64,000 nucleotides of DNA from Elusimicrobiota bacterium (GCA_027319565.1 DAHVNA010000001.1:46806-110805); one strand, 5' to 3'. Counted from the first letter of the stretch, positions 19,353 through 58,146 are shown. The notes: generated by a model from the letters alone, not told the origin. Made by a program: numbers and translations.

Positions 19353-21143
19353 ATGAAAACAATTAAGCACAAAGAGCTTGAAAGTTGGGTTAACGAGACG
19401 GCCAAAGTAGGCGAGCCGGACCAAGTTTATTGGGTGGACGGGACTCCCGCAGAAAAAGATCGTCTGACCAAAAGAGCCATTGCCCGCGGTTTTATCATCC
19501 CCTTAGACCAAGAAAAATATCCCGGTTGTTATTACAGCCGTTCCCACTCCAATGATGTCGCCCGCACCGAGCATTTGACCTATATCTGCGCCAAAAATAA
19601 GGAAGACGCGGGGCCGACCAACAATTGGATGTCGCCGGAGGAGGGTTACGCGAAATCAAAAGAGATATTGAAAGGCTCGATGCATGGTCGGACGATGTAT
19701 GTGATTCCCTTTTCGATGGGGCCCATTGGGTCTCCGTTTTCAAAAATCGGGGTTGAGATTACCGATTCTCTCTATGTCGTTTTAAACATGCTGATTATGA
19801 CGAGAGTCGGAGACAAGGTCTTGGATCAATTGGGAACAGACGGAGCCTACACTAAATGCCTGCACACCCGGGCGGATCTTGATGTTCAACACCGTTTCAT
19901 CCTTCATTTTCCGGAGGATAATGCCATTGTCTCGACCGGGTCGGCCTACGGCGGAAACGCCCTTTTAGGAAAAAAATGCCTGGCCTTGCGCATCGCCTCT
20001 TGGCAGGCGAGAGAGGAGAAATGGCTGGCCGAGCATATGCTGATCTTGGGCATTGAAAAAGACGGCAAGACCGAATATGTGGTAGCGGCTTTTCCTTCCG
20101 CTTGCGGAAAGACCAATCTCGCGATGTTGATTCCGCCAGAAGGGCTCAAGGGCAAGAATTACAAAATCTGGACCTTGGGAGATGATATCGCCTGGCTGAG
20201 AAAAGGGAAAGACGGGCGTTTATGGGCTTTAAATCCGGAATCGGGCTTTTTCGGGGTCGCTCCGGGCACCAATTCAAAAACCAATCCCAACGCGATGAAG
20301 ACGATGAGTCAAAATACGATTTTTACCAACGTCCTTTTGGGAGATGATCTCACTGTTTGGTGGGAGGATGGCGAAGGTCAGCCTCCCTCTTCGGGCGTCG
20401 CTTGGGATGGAAAACCTTGGAAGCCGGGAATGAAAGACTCTTCCGGTAAGCCCGTCTTGGGCGCTCATCCCAATAGCCGCTTTACCTCTCCGGCCGGTCA
20501 ATGCCCCTCGATCGCCCCCAATTGGGAAGACCCCCGGGGCGTGCCCATCTCGGCGGTTATTTTCGGCGGAAGGCGAGAGCGCTTGGCGCCCTTGGTTTTT
20601 GAATCCTTCGATTGGACTCATGGAGTTTACGTCGGAGCGACGATGGCTTCCGAAAGAACCGCGGCCGCCGATGGAAAAGTCGGCGAGGTGCGCCGGGATC
20701 CGATGGCGATGATTCCATTTTGTGGATACAATATGGGCGATTATTTCGCTCATTGGCTCGAAATGGGGCGCGAGATTTCAAAACCTCCGAAGATCTTTCA
20801 CGTCAATTGGTTCAGAAAAGACGAAAACCGGAAATTTCTCTGGCCCGGCTACGGGGAGAATTTGCGCGTTCTTGAATGGATTTTGGCCCGCTGCCGAGGG
20901 GAAGGAAAAGCCCAAAAAACTCCGATCGGCTTTGTCCCGTCTTCTGACGCCTTGGACCTGTCGGGGCTTAATATTCCAAAAGAGACGATTGATAAGCTTC
21001 TTGAGGTTCGCTCCGAAGACTGGGTTTCCGAGCTCGATGGCGTTAAAAGCTTCTTTGAAAAATTTGGGGATAGCTTGCCCAAGGAACTTTGGAAGCAGTT
21101 TGAGGAGCTCAAAAGCCGCCTTCAATCCAAGGTCGCGGCTTAG
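19353..21143 (+). CDS. pckG: Phosphoenolpyruvate carboxykinase (GTP)
   Basis: 596 aa. FPSACGKTNLAML kinase-1a P-loop, GDDIAWL, and FHVNWFRKDENRKFLWPGYGENLRVL, characteristic of GTP-PEPCK. Confidence 0.95.
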   Translation: MKTIKHKELESWVNETAKVGEPDQVYWVDGTPAEKDRLTKRAIARGFIIPLDQEKYPGCYYSRSHSNDVARTEHLTYICAKNKEDAGPTNNWMSPEEGYAKSKEILKGSMHGRTMYVIPFSMGPIGSPFSKIGVEITDSLYVVLNMLIMTRVGDKVLDQLGTDGAYTKCLHTRADLDVQHRFILHFPEDNAIVSTGSAYGGNALLGKKCLALRIASWQAREEKWLAEHMLILGIEKDGKTEYVVAAFPSACGKTNLAMLIPPEGLKGKNYKIWTLGDDIAWLRKGKDGRLWALNPESGFFGVAPGTNSKTNPNAMKTMSQNTIFTNVLLGDDLTVWWEDGEGQPPSSGVAWDGKPWKPGMKDSSGKPVLGAHPNSRFTSPAGQCPSIAPNWEDPRGVPISAVIFGGRRERLAPLVFESFDWTHGVYVGATMASERTAAADGKVGEVRRDPMAMIPFCGYNMGDYFAHWLEMGREISKPPKIFHVNWFRKDENRKFLWPGYGENLRVLEWILARCRGEGKAQKTPIGFVPSSDALDLSGLNIPKETIDKLLEVRSEDWVSELDGVKSFFEKFGDSLPKELWKQFEELKSRLQSKVAA

Positions 21144-21276
21144 TGTTTGTTGCGAGCCCTAAGATCGGGGTTTTTTCCGCTATGAGCGGAATACACTTGA
21201 TACCAAAACGCAGACTTGGATCGGCGATTCGGTAGAGCACGTTCTTCGGGTTGCGCTCCGATTGGCCGAGAGGTTA

Positions 21277-21297
21277 ATTATCCTTGTCAAGGATAAT
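21277..21297. repeat. Perfect 10-1-10 palindrome ATTATCCTTG-T-CAAGGATAAT in the intergenic region
   Basis: Read directly from the sequence. Both arms are exact reverse complements. Confidence 0.9.
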
Positions 21298-21357
21298 CCA
21301 GACAAAGGATAACATGAATCTAAAAGTAACTGCTCAGGCCAAGGGAAATCTATCGCG

Positions 21358-21450
21358 TTCTCCCTCTCCCTTGACGGGAGAGGGAGGGGTGAGGGTGAGC
21401 GAAGCTCATCGTCACCCCCCATCCTAACCTTCCCCCGCAGGGGGGGAAGG
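21358..21450 (+). repeat. GC-rich REP-like element with two strong stem-loops
   Basis: CTCCCTCTCCC-ttgac-GGGAGAGGGAG (21360-21386), followed by GGGTGAGGGTGAGC, then CCTTCCCCC-gcagg-GGGGGAAGG (21428-21450). A related element occurs inverted at 26201-26304. Confidence 0.75.
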
Positions 21451-21483
21451 AAATTAACAAAGAGCCTGAGCAGCTATGAGAAT

Positions 21484-21534
21484 TTACCCCAAGAGGGCGA
21501 CGAGCTTGCTGGGAGACGCGGCGCCGCGGACGAT
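21484..21534 (-). repeat. Displaced remnant of a DUF167 gene 3' end (left copy of the island-flanking direct repeat)
   Basis: The 51 nt align without gaps to 25967-26017 with 43/51 identities. The minus strand reads IVRGAASPSKLVALLG-stop, versus IVRGASSPSKLVALLG-stop in the intact gene. An in-frame TAG lies immediately upstream. Confidence 0.8.
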
Positions 21535-21623
21535 CTATGTTTGGCACAATAAACAACTTCTCGGAGTTTTAGCGATCGCCAGAATATTTTTCGAGATTTT
21601 ATTGGGATTTTACTGCTTCGTTA

Positions 21624-22151
21624 TTACTCGGGACAGTCTAACAATGCCTTTTCAAATTCTTCCACAAATTTTACAGCTCTTTGATAAAGCTCATATACTT
21701 CTTGTCCTGTTTGTTCTATGTGGTAGGCGGCGAAGTTTTTATGTGCCAATTCGTTCCTTAACCCCCCAATTTGGATAAATGAACGGATGGCTTCCTCTAA
21801 TTCCTGCTCATTCTTAATCTTGACTTGAAAGCTTGTTGAAAAATTGTCGCCAAATAGTTTTAAAAATTTATTTGCGTTTTGCGCTTCCCAGTCGAAATAT
21901 GTGTGATATTGTCTGGAAATCGCTTTTGCTTCCATCAGCGCCTTAATTTTTGAATTATCCTGAGAAGCTTGTAATACAAAATTTCGAATAATCTCCTGAA
22001 TACGCGTCTCAAAATAGCTTGCGGCTGACATGATCAAAATTTTCTTGAGTTTATTGTCAGCATCAATAAATAGTGAAATCTCGTTTTTAGATTTAAGAAA
22101 CTCCAATATCCCTGAATTTTCCTCATACAAGTTGTCAATTGGTGTCGACAC
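21624..22151 (-). CDS. HEPN-motif protein (putative RNase effector), partner of the upstream DUF262 gene
   Basis: 175 aa, helical-looking, with an Rx4H motif in IQIGGLRNELAHKNF. The GTG start lies 7 nt after the DUF262 stop, has no Shine-Dalgarno, and is in another frame (coupled reinitiation likely). AT-rich. Confidence 0.55.
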   Translation of the reverse strand: MSTPIDNLYEENSGILEFLKSKNEISLFIDADNKLKKILIMSAASYFETRIQEIIRNFVLQASQDNSKIKALMEAKAISRQYHTYFDWEAQNANKFLKLFGDNFSTSFQVKIKNEQELEEAIRSFIQIGGLRNELAHKNFAAYHIEQTGQEVYELYQRAVKFVEEFEKALLDCPE

Positions 22152-22158
22152 TTTTGAG

Positions 22159-23331
22159 TTAATAAGATGGGAGAAGCTCTTTTGCTCGTTTGAGCCTCAA
22201 ATTGACTTTTGCCTTGTTCGTGGTTTGTGATTTTATTGCGCTAAGAAAGTCGTCATCTTTCTTTAGAGCCGCTAGTTGGTCGGTAGTAAAGTCCTTTTTT
22301 ACCAGTTCTTTCTTTTGGAACGCTGGCGAGCATATTGCGTAAAAAACCGCCTCATAAATCGTGATATTGAATCTCCCGGGTTTCAGCGTAAACACAGCAG
22401 GATCGACAGAAGCGATGGATTTTAGGAACGAGGCAAACATTTTTCGTCTGTAGCTGATGTCTGCGTCGCTTAAAGATTTACATTGTTTTGAAAACTCGTT
22501 TAGAAAGATTGTCATGGAGGAAGAGTATTTTTCGCTATTTTCCAACATGGCGAATCCCCTTAACAAAACCTCGATATCCTTCATTCGGATATCCAGCTGG
22601 GGAGATGCAAGTAGCTTTCTCCACTGGGAATCTCTATTTAGCTCGGCCAGAAGCTCATAAAACTTAGAGTGATAAAGACTTGCGCGAATTTCTTGCGCCG
22701 CTAGGTTAACTCCACCAGAATTCAGTCTGCTGAATATCTCGTAAATTGAAGAGTCTCCTTCCGGGGAGCTTTGCTTCAAGATTATATTCCTAATGGTCCT
22801 CAGATCGAATGTTGATCTAGTTTCCTCTGTAAGCGTTTTGTAATTGAGGCCATCCAGTGGTCGCCGTTTATCCGGGTCGATTTTTTTTAGCCGGAGATTA
22901 AAGTTGCCAAAGTAATTGTCATTGGCAAGTATTTCATCCGGAATGATCCCGTCTTTGTTGTATATCTGCCGCATCTCTATGCGCTTTTCGTCTTTGGGAA
23001 AGCGACCTATCACAAAAAAATAAATACTTAGCAGGCGTTGCTGCCCATCTACTACAAGAAATTTATTCTTAATTCTAACTTCCTCGAAAAGAAATATCTG
23101 TGGTATTGGCAATCCTAGAATGATCGATTCGATAAGCTTAGATGCGCGTTTTATGTCCCACACGTAATGTCTTTGAAAAGGAGGGAGCTTAAATGTTCCC
23201 TTTTGTATGAAATCAAATATGGTTTTAATGTTGAAATCATTTGGAGCGGAGATAATGTCGTATTCATTAATTCCAATGCCTTCTTCCTGATCCGCCTCGT
23301 CCTTATCAAGCCATCCATTGTCTTCTTCCAT
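22159..23331 (-). CDS. DUF262 (ParB-like NTPase/nuclease N-terminal) domain protein without a DUF1524/HNH domain
   Basis: FKLPPFQRHYVWDIKRASKLIESIILGLPIPQIFLF, FLVVDGQQRLLSIYF and IFSRLNSGGVNLAAQEIRASL. The ATG at 23331 has a GGAGG 6 nt upstream. The longer ORF-track start overlaps vsr. Confidence 0.85.
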   Translation of the reverse strand: MEEDNGWLDKDEADQEEGIGINEYDIISAPNDFNIKTIFDFIQKGTFKLPPFQRHYVWDIKRASKLIESIILGLPIPQIFLFEEVRIKNKFLVVDGQQRLLSIYFFVIGRFPKDEKRIEMRQIYNKDGIIPDEILANDNYFGNFNLRLKKIDPDKRRPLDGLNYKTLTEETRSTFDLRTIRNIILKQSSPEGDSSIYEIFSRLNSGGVNLAAQEIRASLYHSKFYELLAELNRDSQWRKLLASPQLDIRMKDIEVLLRGFAMLENSEKYSSSMTIFLNEFSKQCKSLSDADISYRRKMFASFLKSIASVDPAVFTLKPGRFNITIYEAVFYAICSPAFQKKELVKKDFTTDQLAALKKDDDFLSAIKSQTTNKAKVNLRLKRAKELLPSY

Positions 23332-23348
23332 TTCAATCCTCCAAAAAA

Positions 23349-23765
23349 TTATTTCTGTATTTTCCTTAACATGCGCGTTTGGCATGACTTGGGCATTAGG
23401 CGCACGTCATGCTCCCAGATGCGCGCGATTTCCCAGCCATGCTTTTTGAGTTCGCGATTCTGTTTCTGATCGCGTCGCATATTGCCAGCGATTTTCTTCT
23501 CCCAATATTTTTTGTTGGACTGGGGACGTAGATTGCGCGTACAATGGGCGCAGCCATGCCAAAAGCAACCGTCCACGAAAATGGCGAGCTTTTTCTTTGG
23601 AAAAACGATATCCGGAGCGCCGGGCAAGCCCCGCCCATTCGTCGTCCAGCCTCGAATCCCTTTGGAAATAAGCCAGCCTCGTAGTCGCAATTCGGTCGAG
23701 CGCGTTCCAGTCGATTTAATGGCGGACATGATCTTTGACCGCTTCGCGCGAGAGACGGTGTCCAT
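23349..23765 (-). CDS. vsr: Very short patch repair endonuclease
   Basis: 138 aa. RSKIMSAIKSTGTRSTELRLR..., PGAPDIVFPKKKLAIFVDGCFWHGC and RDQKQNRELKKHGWEIARIWEHD are typical Vsr. Confidence 0.9.
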   Translation of the reverse strand: MDTVSRAKRSKIMSAIKSTGTRSTELRLRGWLISKGIRGWTTNGRGLPGAPDIVFPKKKLAIFVDGCFWHGCAHCTRNLRPQSNKKYWEKKIAGNMRRDQKQNRELKKHGWEIARIWEHDVRLMPKSCQTRMLRKIQK

Positions 23766-23769
23766 CCCA

Positions 23770-24546
23770 TTATTCGCCGCGGTGAACCCTAATCCATGAA
23801 GGATCGAAGCTCATTTCTTTCAATACCGCGGCCGCGGATAAATGCGGCGGTCTACGGACGCTAAATCGCAAGCGATTGGTCGGGACGTTCTCTATTATGG
23901 TGAATTGAGAGCCGGTAAATTGCCATGTGAATCGATGTTGGTTTGTTTGGCGGTCGTATCCTTCCAGATTTTTACGCTTATTCATTTTCCACTGGAATTG
24001 GTCTGGCGGGTACATGATAGTTTCCGTTTCGAACGCGGTGAATTCGGAAAGGTCCGGCCCTTTGATGAGGACGACTGTTCGCATATGAGCGTATCGCGCT
24101 CGGAGATTCCCGACTCGCTCGTTCCATATTTTTAAGACGTCAGAGCCGATGCTCTGCGGATCTCTTTGCATATCGCGTTCATCAAAAGAATATGCGGGAG
24201 AGTTTCTTCCGGAAATAAGGCGAATCTTTGTTATCTCGAAGGGTTTGTTCCCTTTGACCGTTTTCGCGCCCCACGCGCAATTGCCCATGATGACGTCATC
24301 CAGTCCGACGTTCGACGGCTTCCATTCGGCCCCAATCGCGACGGCGAATATTCGTTCCCAAACGCGGCCTTCTATATCTGGTTGCCTGCCGGGGAGACCG
24401 CAGAGGGGGTCGGTCGCTAGGATATAGACTATTTCCCGTCCAACATTTAGGGCGAAGTCGCGGGGGAAAACGTTCAAAGGATAGGGCGGCGGGACTCTCT
24501 CGACCGTTCGGACGCGCGGACGTTTTTCGGGCGTGGGCTCGGGCAT
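23770..24546 (-). CDS. Putative type II restriction endonuclease (family not recognised)
   Basis: 258 aa, located between dcm and vsr with 4-6 nt gaps. A possible PD-(D/E)xK-like region is VGLDDVIMGNCAWGAKTVK. The call rests mainly on context. Confidence 0.5.
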   Translation of the reverse strand: MPEPTPEKRPRVRTVERVPPPYPLNVFPRDFALNVGREIVYILATDPLCGLPGRQPDIEGRVWERIFAVAIGAEWKPSNVGLDDVIMGNCAWGAKTVKGNKPFEITKIRLISGRNSPAYSFDERDMQRDPQSIGSDVLKIWNERVGNLRARYAHMRTVVLIKGPDLSEFTAFETETIMYPPDQFQWKMNKRKNLEGYDRQTNQHRFTWQFTGSQFTIIENVPTNRLRFSVRRPPHLSAAAVLKEMSFDPSWIRVHRGE

Positions 24547-24552
24547 TCTTTT

Positions 24553-25575
24553 CTACGCTAGAGCCATATCTCTAGAGTTTATGGTTTTTTTAGATTGGGA
24601 CTTGACAGGGGTTAGAGCCTTATCCAGCCGCTCAAGAACGGCGCGGATAACGGGAACGGCCACGGAATTTCCCGCTTGTTTTCTTGTTTGGGAATCGTTC
24701 GAGACAATCTCATATGAGTCGGGGAAACCCTGGAGTCGCAACATTTCTCGGGGGGTGAGCCGCCTTTTGCCGTCGACTAAAAGGTAGTTGTATGAGGCTC
24801 CGGCGCGGAGAGCGCAAGAAAATGGATAGGAGCTAACGTGTCCGCCCTTGTTCTCGTGCCATATGGCGGGGCTAAACTTGCTCTTGTGGGCCGCCATGCG
24901 GCTTTTGACGATTCTCTCCGAGGTGAAATGTTTGGAGTCGACATTTTTTTCAAGTATCTCGGCCAAGGGTTTCATTGGCGCTCCGCCTGACGGCCATTCA
25001 AACTTGATGTCCTCCAAGGAGCCTACGATGAGTATTCGTTCTCTTTTCTGGGGCAATCCGAAGTCTAAAGCGTTAAGGACGCGCCAAGAGGTTTTGTAGC
25101 CCAGTTCCGTCAAGGTTTTTAGTATGGCGGAGAGCGTTTTGCCGTTATTGTGGCTGACAAGCCTGCGGACGTTTTCAAGGACGAAAGCGCGCGGTTTTTT
25201 TTCCTTAATGATGCGCGCGATTTCAAAGAAAAGCGTTCCCCTTGCGTCGTCAAAGCCTTTCCCCTCGCCGATGATGCTGAAGGGTTGGCAGGGGAAACCC
25301 GCGAGAAGAACGTCATGGTCGGGGATGCTGGAAGCCGGTATCTGGTGGATGTCTCCGAGAGGCTTTAGTCCAAAGTTTCGCTCGTATGTCCTTCTCGCTT
25401 CATCATCGATGTCGGACGCCATTTCGCATTGCCAACCGAGCGAATTCGCGGCTAAATGGAATCCGCCGATGCCACAGAATAAGTCAATGAACCGTAGGGG
25501 GACCGAGCGAGTCTCATAGTTCCCCTTGCTTTCACGCAACTGATTCTCTCTTGAGTTCCAGTGATGATTCTTCAT
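24553..25575 (-). CDS. dcm: DNA (cytosine-5)-methyltransferase
   Basis: Motif I FIDLFCGIGGF, motif IV GFPCQPFS, motif VI FVLENV, motif VIII QKRERILIVG, motif X GNSVAVPV. The ATG at 25575 (GGGAAGG upstream) is preferred; the ORF-track TTG at 25647 is an alternative. Confidence 0.92.
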   Translation of the reverse strand: MKNHHWNSRENQLRESKGNYETRSVPLRFIDLFCGIGGFHLAANSLGWQCEMASDIDDEARRTYERNFGLKPLGDIHQIPASSIPDHDVLLAGFPCQPFSIIGEGKGFDDARGTLFFEIARIIKEKKPRAFVLENVRRLVSHNNGKTLSAILKTLTELGYKTSWRVLNALDFGLPQKRERILIVGSLEDIKFEWPSGGAPMKPLAEILEKNVDSKHFTSERIVKSRMAAHKSKFSPAIWHENKGGHVSSYPFSCALRAGASYNYLLVDGKRRLTPREMLRLQGFPDSYEIVSNDSQTRKQAGNSVAVPVIRAVLERLDKALTPVKSQSKKTINSRDMALA

Positions 25576-25665
25576 CTTAACCTTCCCAATTATATCAAGT
25601 CTGCCGCGCGTTCGCGCTTCCTGATGCCTTTTGCGCGATTCAGTCAACTGGAGTGGCGCTAGATT

Positions 25666-25878
25666 TCAAAGTCGCTCGCAATTCGCGTATTTGATGCCCA
25701 TCCTGTACGCTTTGTCTGCCGTTAAACGCTTTCCTTTCGACAGAATCGCGATCGTAGTAGAGACGATGCTCATCGCTCTTGAAACGGATTCGTCCGTGCC
25801 GCGTTCATCCAGTTTTGCCAGAGCGGACATCAACACGCTTTCCAATTCCATCGCATTGATTTTTCTCAGTTTTTTCAT
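25666..25878 (-). CDS. Small hypothetical protein at the head of the island operon (possible regulator)
   Basis: 70 aa with a strong GGAAGGAGG RBS upstream of the ATG. No canonical Xre-type C-protein HTH was recognised. Confidence 0.4.
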   Translation of the reverse strand: MKKLRKINAMELESVLMSALAKLDERGTDESVSRAMSIVSTTIAILSKGKRLTADKAYRMGIKYANCERL

Positions 25879-25966
25879 TTACCCGCCTCCTTCCTCATCC
25901 TTATTACGGGTTAGGGGGCATATTTGTTCCCCGAACGTTTAGGTTTCGCGGCTTTGTTAGGAAAAA

Positions 25967-26191
25967 TTACCCAAGCAGGGCGACGAGCTTGCTGGGGGAA
26001 CTCGCGCCGCGGACGATTTTAAGGCGCTTGGCTTTAACGCCGAGATGCTGGGCGAGAAGGGAGAGAACCGCGGCGTTGGCGCGGCCGTTTTCAGGTTTAG
26101 CCTTCACATCGATGGCGAAAGAATGCGGGGCCGTTGAAATTATGAAATTGCGGCGGGCTTCGGCGCGGACTTTAACCTTAAAGAGAGTCAT
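25967..26191 (-). CDS. DUF167 (YggU-like) family protein
   Basis: 74 aa. ...FAIDVKAKPENGRANAAVLSLLAQHLGVKAKRLKIVRGASSPSKLV matches the DUF167 pattern (KP.A..G.AN..l...la..l...k..i.i..G..sr.K). The ATG overlaps the upstream stop (ATGA). Confidence 0.75.
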   Translation of the reverse strand: MTLFKVKVRAEARRNFIISTAPHSFAIDVKAKPENGRANAAVLSLLAQHLGVKAKRLKIVRGASSPSKLVALLG

Positions 26192-27120
26192 GAGTTAATT
26201 GACCCCTCACCCTTGCCCTCTGCCTTCACTCGCGAAGCGAGAGCGTGCCGGAGCATCTTTGGGAAAGACGTTATGCTCCGGCCTCCCGCAAGGGGAGAGG
26301 GAGAAATAATGGTTTCTATTTTTTCTTCCAGTCGCCCGAGAAGCCTTAAAAGCCCGTCCAGGATTGTGAGGGGGTGGGGCGGGCATCCCGGAATGAAGAG
26401 ATCCACTGGAACAAGCGCGGCCGCTCCTCCCAGATGCTCTTTAGAATCCATAAACGGCCCGCCGCTGATCGCGCAGGCGCCGATGGCGATGACGATTTTG
26501 GGCGCCGGAACCGCTTGATAGGCCAATTGAAGGGCCTCTTTCATATGATTGGTGACGGGCCCCGTGATGATAAGGCCGTCGGCGTGCCGGGGAGAAGCGA
26601 CAAATTGAATGCCAAAGCGGCCCAAATCAAAGACGACATTGTTTAAGGCCGTTAATTCCGCCTCGCAGGCGCTGCAGCCCCCGGCGCTGACCTGCCTTAG
26701 TTTAAGGGAACGCCCAAAAAGGCGGCGCATTTCTTCTTTTAATGACGTGGCTAATTTCGCCTCTTGAGACTGGATGAGTAGATCTTCCCTTTGATTGGCG
26801 GCCAAGCGGTGATTGCAGGTAAAGACGATCGCGCCCTCCGGGCAACTTTTCGCGCACTCCCCGCAAAAAAGGCAGCGGCCCATATCCAAGGACAGGGTTT
26901 TTTTCTCGGGGTTATGTCCTTCTTGAAGGGCCTGGGTCGGGCATACGCTCAAACAATCGGCGCAGCCCGAGGCGCATAAATCTTGGTTGACTTCGGGGCG
27001 TCCGCGAAAACGTTCCGGAAACTCCGGGTTTTCCTTTGGAAAATTCGAGGTTCGGTATCCCTGTTTGAAGCGGTTTTTGATGATTTCAATCATAGCGGTC
27101 TCATAAATCATGTCCGGCAT
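26188..27120 (-). CDS. Fused 2x[4Fe-4S] ferredoxin (HycF/NuoI-like) and NuoB/HycG-like small subunit
   Basis: N-terminal CASGCADCLSVCP and CLFCGECAKSCP. C-terminal SAGGCSACEAE, IGACAISGGPF and IPGCPPHP (NuoB-type cluster ligands). About 40 C-terminal residues are encoded by the REP-like element. Confidence 0.8.
   Translation of the reverse strand: MPDMIYETAMIEIIKNRFKQGYRTSNFPKENPEFPERFRGRPEVNQDLCASGCADCLSVCPTQALQEGHNPEKKTLSLDMGRCLFCGECAKSCPEGAIVFTCNHRLAANQREDLLIQSQEAKLATSLKEEMRRLFGRSLKLRQVSAGGCSACEAELTALNNVVFDLGRFGIQFVASPRHADGLIITGPVTNHMKEALQLAYQAVPAPKIVIAIGACAISGGPFMDSKEHLGGAAALVPVDLFIPGCPPHPLTILDGLLRLLGRLEEKIETIISPSPLAGGRSITSFPKMLRHALASRVKAEGKGEGSINS
26201..26304 (-). repeat. Second REP-like GC-rich element (inverted relative to 21358-21450), lying inside a coding sequence
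   Basis: Minus strand reads TCTCCCTCTCCCCTTGCGGGAG...CCGGAGCAT-(16 nt)-ATGCTCCGG...GAGGGCAAGGGTGAGGGGTC. It shares the TTCTCCCTCTCCC..TTG.CGGGAG head and the GGGTGAGGG tail with the first element. Confidence 0.65.
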
Positions 27121-58072: not shown

Positions 58073-58146
58073 GCGGGCGTGGTTCAATGGTAGAACGGGT
58101 CCTTGCCAAGGATCAGACGAGGGTTCGATTCCCTTCGCCCGCTCCA
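58073..58146 (+). tRNA. tRNA-Gly (anticodon GCC), CCA encoded
   Basis: Hand-folded cloverleaf. Acceptor GCGGGCG/CGCCCGC, D arm GTTC-AATGGTA-GAAC, anticodon arm GGTCC-TTGCCAA-GGATC, T arm GAGGG-TTCGATT-CCCTT, discriminator T, then CCA. Confidence 0.93.

Follow-up and report, generated by a model that had tools for sequence, protein, structure and literature searches.

We describe here a 4.5-kb block of defense-type genes lodged between a DUF167 gene, the last gene of a membrane-hydrogenase operon, and the convergent core gene pckG in DNA from an Elusimicrobiota bacterium (GCA_027319565.1, DAHVNA010000001.1:46806-110805). The window is the whole stretch that was analyzed, 64,000 nucleotides long, and positions are counted from its first letter. 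The block is bounded by two copies of the 3′ end of DUF167, and our concern is how it came to lie there. Its features, read from pckG toward the hydrogenase operon, are as follows (designations such as L013 stand for sequences from other assemblies).

19353 to 21143, plus strand: pckG, GTP-dependent phosphoenolpyruvate carboxykinase, the convergent core gene and far boundary of the variable site
21144 to 21483, no strand: 340-bp spacer between pckG and the left relic; some 35 nt adjoining the relic share homology with the short DUF167-pckG spacers in L013 and L018, and the rest is species-specific and rich in GC hairpins, mainly at 21350-21451
21484 to 21534, minus strand: left repeat copy, a nonfunctional relic of the DUF167 3′ end, IVRGAASPSKLVALLG plus stop, behind an in-frame TAG; extends to 21475
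21535 to 21555, minus strand: 21-nt junction between the two relics, where about 470 bp of the original arm appear to be gone
21556 to 21600, minus strand: 45-nt relic of the hydrogenase small-subunit gene (Oxidored_q6), reading KSRKIFWRSLKLRE, colinear with the intact operon
21624 to 22151, minus strand: RiboL-PSP-type HEPN protein, partner of the DUF262 protein (PF18735, E = 7e-21; weak PD-T4-2_B match, 1e-3)
22159 to 23385, minus strand: DUF262/GmrSD_N protein, PD-T4-2_A- or NsnA-like (PF03235, E = 2.6e-32; PADLOC NsnA, 3e-58, and PD-T4-2_A, 1e-41)
23349 to 23765, minus strand: Vsr, very-short-patch repair endonuclease (PF03852; TIGR00632, 121 bits)
23770 to 24546, minus strand: putative type II restriction endonuclease (REase) of 258 aa, so called from its context immediately downstream of the C5 methyltransferase (MTase)
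24553 to 25647, minus strand: Dcm, C5 cytosine DNA methyltransferase (PF00145, E = 3.7e-88; PADLOC MTase_II, 1e-109; TIGR00675)
25666 to 25878, minus strand: open reading frame (ORF) of 70 aa, no family hit, first gene of the block in this clade and absent from the L028 cassette
25879 to 25966, minus strand: intergenic stretch after DUF167, with the ribosome-binding site for the 70-aa ORF; kept in L011 and L018
25967 to 26017, minus strand: right repeat copy, comprising the final 16 codons and stop codon of the intact gene DUF167 and continuous with the rest of its 74-aa ORF; extends to 25958
25967 to 26191, minus strand: DUF167 (YggU family), last gene of the hydrogenase operon (PF02594, E = 1.9e-16; TIGR00251)
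26312 to 27120, minus strand: hydrogenase/complex-I-like small subunit (two 4Fe-4S clusters plus a NuoB-like domain), parent of the 45-nt relic and of a 331-bp piece in L018

Read on the minus strand from DUF167, the genes run 70-aa ORF, Dcm, 258-aa ORF, Vsr, DUF262/GmrSD_N, and RiboL-PSP HEPN; an earlier note on this DNA had likewise reported a 4.5-kb block of six defense-type genes, DUF262, HEPN, Dcm, and Vsr among them. Both the C5 MTase and Vsr lie above curated cutoffs (TIGR00675, 299.9 bits against 100.65; TIGR00632, 121 against 97.85), the combination that defines a type II 5-methylcytosine restriction-modification (R-M) system with Vsr. A Dcm-type enzyme methylates host DNA and its partner REase cuts unmethylated incoming DNA, and Vsr mends the T:G mismatches left by deamination of 5-methylcytosine. 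From their families, a DUF262 NTPase and a HEPN nuclease are predicted to be a separate antiphage module, which we take them to be here. In other assemblies, Dcm is called at 340 aa and the DUF262 protein at 390 aa. The 258-aa protein had no match in Pfam, NCBIfam, PADLOC, or PDB sequence searches; its ORF is always immediately 3′ of a C5 MTase in four independent contexts, and homologues with 46-54% identity occur on four IMG/VR contigs, with both of the two examined directly following a C5 MTase. GC content is 0.36 in the HEPN gene, 0.41 in the DUF262 gene, 0.52 in dcm, and 0.50 in the window.

The two copies of the DUF167 end align without gaps at 43 of 51 nt, including two blocks, of 20 and 14 nt, that are identical; a repeat search lengthens the pair to 60 nt at 82% identity (21475-21534 and 25958-26017, 4483 bp apart from start to start). 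A dispersed repeat family is ruled out, since the runner-up ungapped match to the 51-mer on either strand of the 64-kb window is only 28/51. The right copy is the true end of the 74-aa DUF167, which terminates in KIVRGASSPSKLVALLG; the left copy lies on the same strand, with the in-frame TAG immediately before it. Read codon by codon, five of the eight differences between the copies are synonymous (GCG/GCC, TCC/TCT, CTG/CTC, CTT/TTG), and the other three fall in a single codon, AGT/GCG, that changes Ser to Ala. The earlier note had described the repeat in these terms, and on each of them, from the alignment to the truncating TAG and the synonymous differences, its description is reproduced. 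It had also proposed that the original gene end was displaced to the far side, and this is supported by relatives without the block. Positions 21496-21534 of the left copy are identical at 38 of 39 nt to the DUF167 end at the empty site of L013 and L015, in contrast with a genome-wide identity of about 88%, and inspection by eye aligns about 35 nt past the left-copy stop with the short spacers that separate DUF167 from pckG in L013 and the second DUF167 copy from pckG in L018. The left copy is thus the displaced, pckG-side end. The right copy aligns with the empty-site DUF167 as part of the gene, at 82%.

Judged from the sequences compared, the DUF167-pckG interval is a variable defense site among related uncultured bacteria. 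Same-species contigs (L001-L010, 99.9-100% identical) all carry the block, and four allelic states were seen among more distant relatives.

Empty state (L013, L014, L015, L042): hydrogenase small subunit, DUF167 (77 aa, ending in IVRGAASPSKLVALLGSQA and a stop codon), convergent pckG 14 bp on
Island with other distal cargo, R-M part (L018-L027): DUF167, 70-aa ORF, Dcm, 258-aa ORF, Vsr, then alternative cargo
Island with other distal cargo, distal part (L018-L027): second Dcm, HATPase_c_3/Hypoth_Ymh protein, 80-aa hydrogenase small-subunit fragment, complete second DUF167, pckG
Island sub-variant (L019, L023, L024): one or two opposite-strand ORFs in place of Vsr, and in L019 and L024 also of the 258-aa ORF
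HigB plus helix-turn-helix antitoxin state (L011, L040, L041): toxin-antitoxin pair between DUF167 and pckG

The empty site that the earlier note had asked for therefore exists, with a single DUF167 and pckG close by, and the repeats bound a presence/absence polymorphism. Of the same cargo beside DUF167 elsewhere, for which it had also suggested a search, the R-M part was found in L018-L027; the other half of that suggestion, a recombinase-bearing relative at this site, came to nothing in the alleles seen. Throughout, pckG is a conserved boundary (L011, L013, L018, L040, L041, and L042). The useful relative from a scan of GTDB genomes with the hydrogenase subunit was a single one, L011. A scan of JGI metagenomes with the DUF167 protein gave no match, and one with the REase alignment gave only another sample's copy of the L028/L029 contig.

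The flanks group the alleles as (window, (L013, (L011, L018))), with identities of about 88% between the window and the others, 90-91% between L011 and L013, and 98% in pckG between L011 and L018. The R-M core is 89.7% identical between the window and L018, and the flanks are 85-89% identical; because the two diverge equally, the core is either old at this site or has moved together with the flanks. Taken with the 97% amino acid identity of the 258-aa protein in L018, this conservation suggests that the core shared with L018 is old and under selection. An 86%-identical homologue of the 70-aa ORF stands at the same place in L018-L027. Of the 70-aa ORF, L011 keeps only the first 7 codons, together with about 100 nt of the intergenic stretch, evidence that it once had the block. 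The vsr genes are mosaic: window 23349-23765 and L018 2469-2882 are about 88% identical up to the motif FVDGCFWHGC and essentially unrelated beyond it. The C-terminal half of the window Vsr is nearer to that of an outside cassette, L028, than is the L018 version (30/64 against 22/63 identical residues), and it is for this reason that we regard the L018 vsr as the chimera and its distal cargo as a replacement. Different alleles come from the same samples (window-type island and empty site in ERZ27233560, L018-type island and HigBA allele in JGI 3300033990, window-type and L018-type islands in ERZ27237422), which makes exchange between co-resident relatives plausible.

Several further features of these alleles were seen. 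Downstream cargo seems to be swapped by recombination at the conserved catalytic motif FVDGCFWHGC. The alternative cargo of L018 (2882-5657), a second C5 MTase and a 559-aa HATPase_c_3/Hypoth_Ymh protein, is probably another modification-linked defense pair. In L019 and L024 (about 1800-2700), opposite-strand ORFs of 192 and 93 aa stand in place of REase and Vsr, and the first Dcm may be left there as an orphan methylase; L023 retains the REase and has the 93-aa ORF only. Neither ORF had a family hit in L019, L023, or L024. The HigB and HTH_3 antitoxin genes (L011 8197-8999, also L040 and L041), whose carriers are closely related to L018 (98% identity in pckG), directly abut the pckG stop codon. 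The 70-aa ORF falls in one homologue cluster only, among 5.8 billion proteins, and is always directly after DUF167 in this clade.

What sets this locus apart is the far arm, the duplicated sequence on the pckG side. In L018 and L022, the second arm copy is 547 bp long, 96.5% identical to the first, and comprises DUF167 and, ahead of it, the 331 bp at the 3′ end of the hydrogenase gene. In the window, the 45-nt hydrogenase relic sits 21 nt upstream of the left copy, in the order and orientation of the intact operon. Given the long duplication in L018 and this colinear relic, the 51-mer is best seen as the remnant of a longer arm. The window far arm would once have measured at least about 600 bp, taking in part of the hydrogenase small-subunit gene and DUF167, and would have lost about 470 bp internally, eroding to the 45-nt and 51-nt pieces; AAAATCGTC, present in both parent genes, is possibly a microhomology at the 21-nt junction.

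The 45-nt relic is not of the host's type. At the homologous position in the gene, 38 of its 45 nt agree with L016 and L017 and 36 of 45 with L031, compared with only 25-29/45 for the hydrogenase genes of the window's own clade (25/45 for the host's own gene); the best unrelated match among 715,068 positions scanned is 29/45. By these identities, the far arm is chimeric, its upstream part coming from an L016/L031-like lineage and its gene end being of the host-clade type found at the empty site. The first 35 nt or so of 25879-25966, just after the right copy, also look like the tail of DUF167 in L016, a distant relative. Between the two DUF167 copies of L018, 2 of 111 nt differ in codons 1-37 and 13 of 111 in codons 38-74, a sharp step that fits a recombination or gene-conversion boundary.

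We think it probable that the block is a cassette of R-M genes and a PD-T4-2-like pair that was inserted with a long target duplication and is gained and lost by homologous recombination. Entry would be through homology to the operon end, without an integrase. A circle carrying the cassette and an operon-end copy from a related donor could integrate by a single crossover, or a donor that already has both arms could recombine in by two. Either route would leave a chimeric far arm with a donor-type hydrogenase piece followed by a recipient-type DUF167 end. Arm-to-arm recombination would then delete the block and yield the empty allele, in which one gene remains and carries the end of the far arm. 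Swapping of internal cargo is seen directly in the breakpoint inside vsr and in the HigBA replacement in a sister lineage. One can also envision, more tentatively, that the duplicated flank travels with the cassette as a portable homology arm rather than arising at insertion; we regard this as a real possibility that falls short of being probable.

Several points weigh against gain and loss by homologous recombination. The homology-driven step is deduced from short relics of 45 and 51 nt, and no circular or donor form of the cassette was found. The implied donor and recipient arms would be about 70-85% identical, a poor substrate for RecA-type recombination. Nor does the window right copy resemble L016 or L031 more than the other alleles do. 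In L018, the hydrogenase part of the second arm copy is of the host type, 98% identical to its own first copy and 68% to L016; either gene conversion has erased the donor signature there, or the duplications of L018 and the window arose separately. The relatives are metagenome assemblies throughout, and a false empty site could result if two similar arms were merged during assembly, although the agreement of four independent assemblies argues against this. Finally, it is gene context alone that makes the 258-aa ORF a candidate, putative type II REase.

Classical site-specific integration was the explanation favored in the earlier note. A circular element with a DUF167-like attP would have been inserted by a tyrosine or serine recombinase, the integrase being later lost or acting in trans, as for e14 at icd or elements of the cis-mobilizable (CIME) kind, which are att-flanked and mobilized in trans. 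At icd, e14 or phage 21 supplies a surrogate 3′ end, encodes its own integrase, and recombines at a defined core. The present locus resembles that case in having an intact gene whose substitute end adjoins the element and a displaced end fragment on the far side. The direct repeat spans the stop codon and has long identical blocks and mostly synonymous differences, an empty site exists with an end of the far-copy type, and a related combination (DUF262-HEPN, Dcm, GIY-YIG, Vsr) rides a tyrosine-integrase island by tRNA-Arg in L032. We nevertheless consider this explanation unlikely. Both marks of an integrase element were examined, a linked recombinase and a duplication confined to the crossover core and gene end, and neither was found: the duplicated arm reaches into the upstream gene, for 547 bp in all in L018, and the foreign-allele relic of the upstream gene in the window's far arm is not something that a surrogate-end model predicts. 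For the same reason, with 331 bp of the upstream gene in the L018 arm and the 45-nt relic in the window, the 51-mer is not supported as the attachment (att) site of a site-specific recombinase.

As to the recombinase itself, the earlier note had seen no integrase, recombinase, or transposase between or beside the repeats, and we can extend this to 10 kb and to the other alleles. Neither the block genes nor the genes called up to 10 kb away on each side include an integrase, nor do ten further window ORFs of integrase-like size (no exhaustive scan was made of what remains of the window), and none is present in any of the four allelic states. A viral attP was also sought; the 20-nt core gave one IMG/VR match, in an unrelated protein and at 32/51 over the full repeat. 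In a small sampling, neither the contigs with DUF167, 70-aa ORF, or pckG homologues nor an IMG/VR search by the 20-nt core revealed an integrase-bearing element at the same att.

A true long target duplication in situ, in which break and repair copies several hundred base pairs of recipient sequence to both sides and no donor arm is involved, appears quite unlikely to us. This is how the class of such insertions is usually depicted (PMC2853133), and the two L018 arms, host-type in their hydrogenase part, are what it would produce. The 45-nt relic, however, is not the host allele, and the tail after the near copy resembles that of a distant relative. It is very improbable that the operon end underwent partial tandem duplication long ago, that the duplication decayed by itself, and that defense genes later landed between the copies by coincidence, even though Furuta et al. 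name "chance insertions between repeated sequences" as a class (PMC2853133), because duplication and cargo are both present (window, L018) or both absent (L013, L042) and no allele was found with the duplication but no cargo.

Other candidates for an insertion agent or target were tried and rejected. There is no tRNA or tmRNA near the island, the sole tRNA of the window being a tRNA-Gly at 58073. Within the spacer, 21100-21650 gave only sub-threshold matches to hairpin-shaped models of known RNAs. In this species only, a 120-bp GC-rich palindromic insert lies at 26192-26311, between the hydrogenase small subunit and DUF167; L011, L013, L018, and L022 lack it. The upstream ORF continues across this insert to 310 aa, compared with 263, and its TGA stop overlaps the DUF167 start codon. 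Across the window, exact copies of GGGAGAGGGAG are confined to 21360, 21376, and 26293, at the two ends of the locus. A pair of repetitive extragenic palindromic (REP) or miniature inverted-repeat (MITE) elements acting as transposon ends was considered and set aside, as a 24-nt hairpin motif is all that the insert at 26192-26311 has in common with the one at about 21350-21450. The palindromic inserts do not explain the insertion, because they are absent from relatives with the same island core.

R-M genes inserted with a long target duplication form a known class, which is reportedly also credited to Nobusato et al. (2000, Gene 259:99). As set out by Furuta, Abe, and Kobayashi in 2010 (PMC2853133), its members have R and M genes and a length of <20 kb, lack mobility genes, are flanked by a repeat of >30 bp, and have an unoccupied counterpart site in a related genome; the repeats range in length from 46 to about 420 bp, and a stop codon often lies within them. 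Here, M and putative R genes and a few others lie between repeats 4483 bp apart, with no mobility gene. The direct repeat is 51-60 bp in the window, its uniqueness being scored within those 64 kb, and 547 bp in L018. Both repeats align to one copy at the empty site (L013, L014, L015, L042), and the target gene remains whole, because the repeat takes in its stop codon. The M gene is clear (PF00145, 3.7e-88) and the R gene is a candidate by position only; going by sequence, the arrangement fits the class, with the identity of the R gene as the sole point on which the fit is not firm. Our case differs in that the R-M genes are joined to a PD-T4-2-like DUF262-HEPN pair, that the hosts are uncultured and known from metagenome assemblies only, and that one arm is eroded and chimeric, with a donor-type upstream piece and a recipient-type gene end. 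The chimeric arm points to homologous import of the arm rather than its duplication at insertion, and what this example may add to the known class lies there, in its bearing on how such insertions form.

Two further comparisons are useful. Core-gene-flanked defense hotspots, such as those of Pseudomonas aeruginosa (PMC10250203), likewise have a fixed site between conserved genes and strain-variable defense cargo. Such hotspots are not known to need a flanking duplication, whereas here a duplicated flank accompanies the cargo. PD-T4-2 is a two-gene module of a DUF262 protein and a PF18735 (RiboL-PSP) HEPN protein (Vassallo et al. 2022, PMC9519451; domains summarized in PMC10952713). By predicted domains, the window pair is of this kind, a DUF262 protein adjoining a PF18735 HEPN protein, but it is a distant sequence relative only, with a weak HEPN match to PD-T4-2_B (1e-3), and it is joined to a Dcm-REase-Vsr system. 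Menshen (NsnABC) was rejected; in spite of the NsnA-like match, no NsnB or NsnC model matched any of seven island proteins, and the partner is a HEPN protein.

The cassette itself recurs outside this clade. The nearest DUF262 homologue, at 63% amino acid identity, lies on a 92-kb contig (L028) of a high-GC organism with a flank GC of 0.62, and Dcm, REase, Vsr, DUF262, and HEPN stand there in the same order in an unrelated, 62%-GC genome. The L028 block aligns colinearly with 25502-22490 of the window (67% identity over 3079 nt), and the proteins are 79 (Dcm), 71 (REase), about 60 (Vsr), 63 (DUF262), and 48% (HEPN) identical. GC falls in parallel, through 0.49, 0.43, and 0.40 in L028 and 0.52, 0.41, and 0.36 in the window. 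This bears on a further suggestion of the earlier note, that the composite composition may reflect acquisition in more than one step. The GC drop is real, but because the five-gene unit recurs in the same order with a like gradient, the AT-rich half is a property of the cassette and no sign of later addition, and the drop alone is no evidence of stepwise acquisition. On other evidence, namely the vsr breakpoint relative to L018 and the cargo replacement in sister lineages, remodeling of the locus did take place in several steps.

The DUF262-HEPN pair is kept in all four of the other contexts seen (L028, L030, L032, L033), and in two of the four (L028/L030 and L032) it is joined to Dcm-REase-Vsr, as it is here. 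In L028, L029, and L034 (JGI Ga0307374_10000319 and related sequences; about 3750-7760 in L028), the five-gene cassette follows a PaaA-like gene; the L028 contig stops 650 bp past HEPN, which leaves the far boundary out of view. The island at L032 3149-10320 comprises tRNA-Arg, a tyrosine integrase, an HTH_17 protein, DUF262, HEPN, Dcm, a GIY-YIG protein, and Vsr, so that elsewhere a like defense combination also travels on a classical integrative island, for which no far att site was located.

This locus provides a well-resolved natural example of defense genes being gained, swapped, and lost at one site without an integrase or transposase, with four allelic states among relatives that co-occur in the same samples, and it identifies Dcm-REase-Vsr-DUF262-HEPN as a recurring five-gene unit. 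The chimeric, eroded arm is rare sequence-level evidence on the origin of long-target-duplication insertions, a class described in 2000. If the duplicated flank does act as a portable arm, the cassette would leave with a copy of the local operon end, enter a related genome by homologous recombination, and so produce arms that are donor/recipient chimeras; it could leave again by recombination between the arms. Such a cycle would give the long-target-duplication class a mechanism and would allow defense genes to move, free of any integrase, among related species that share a habitat.

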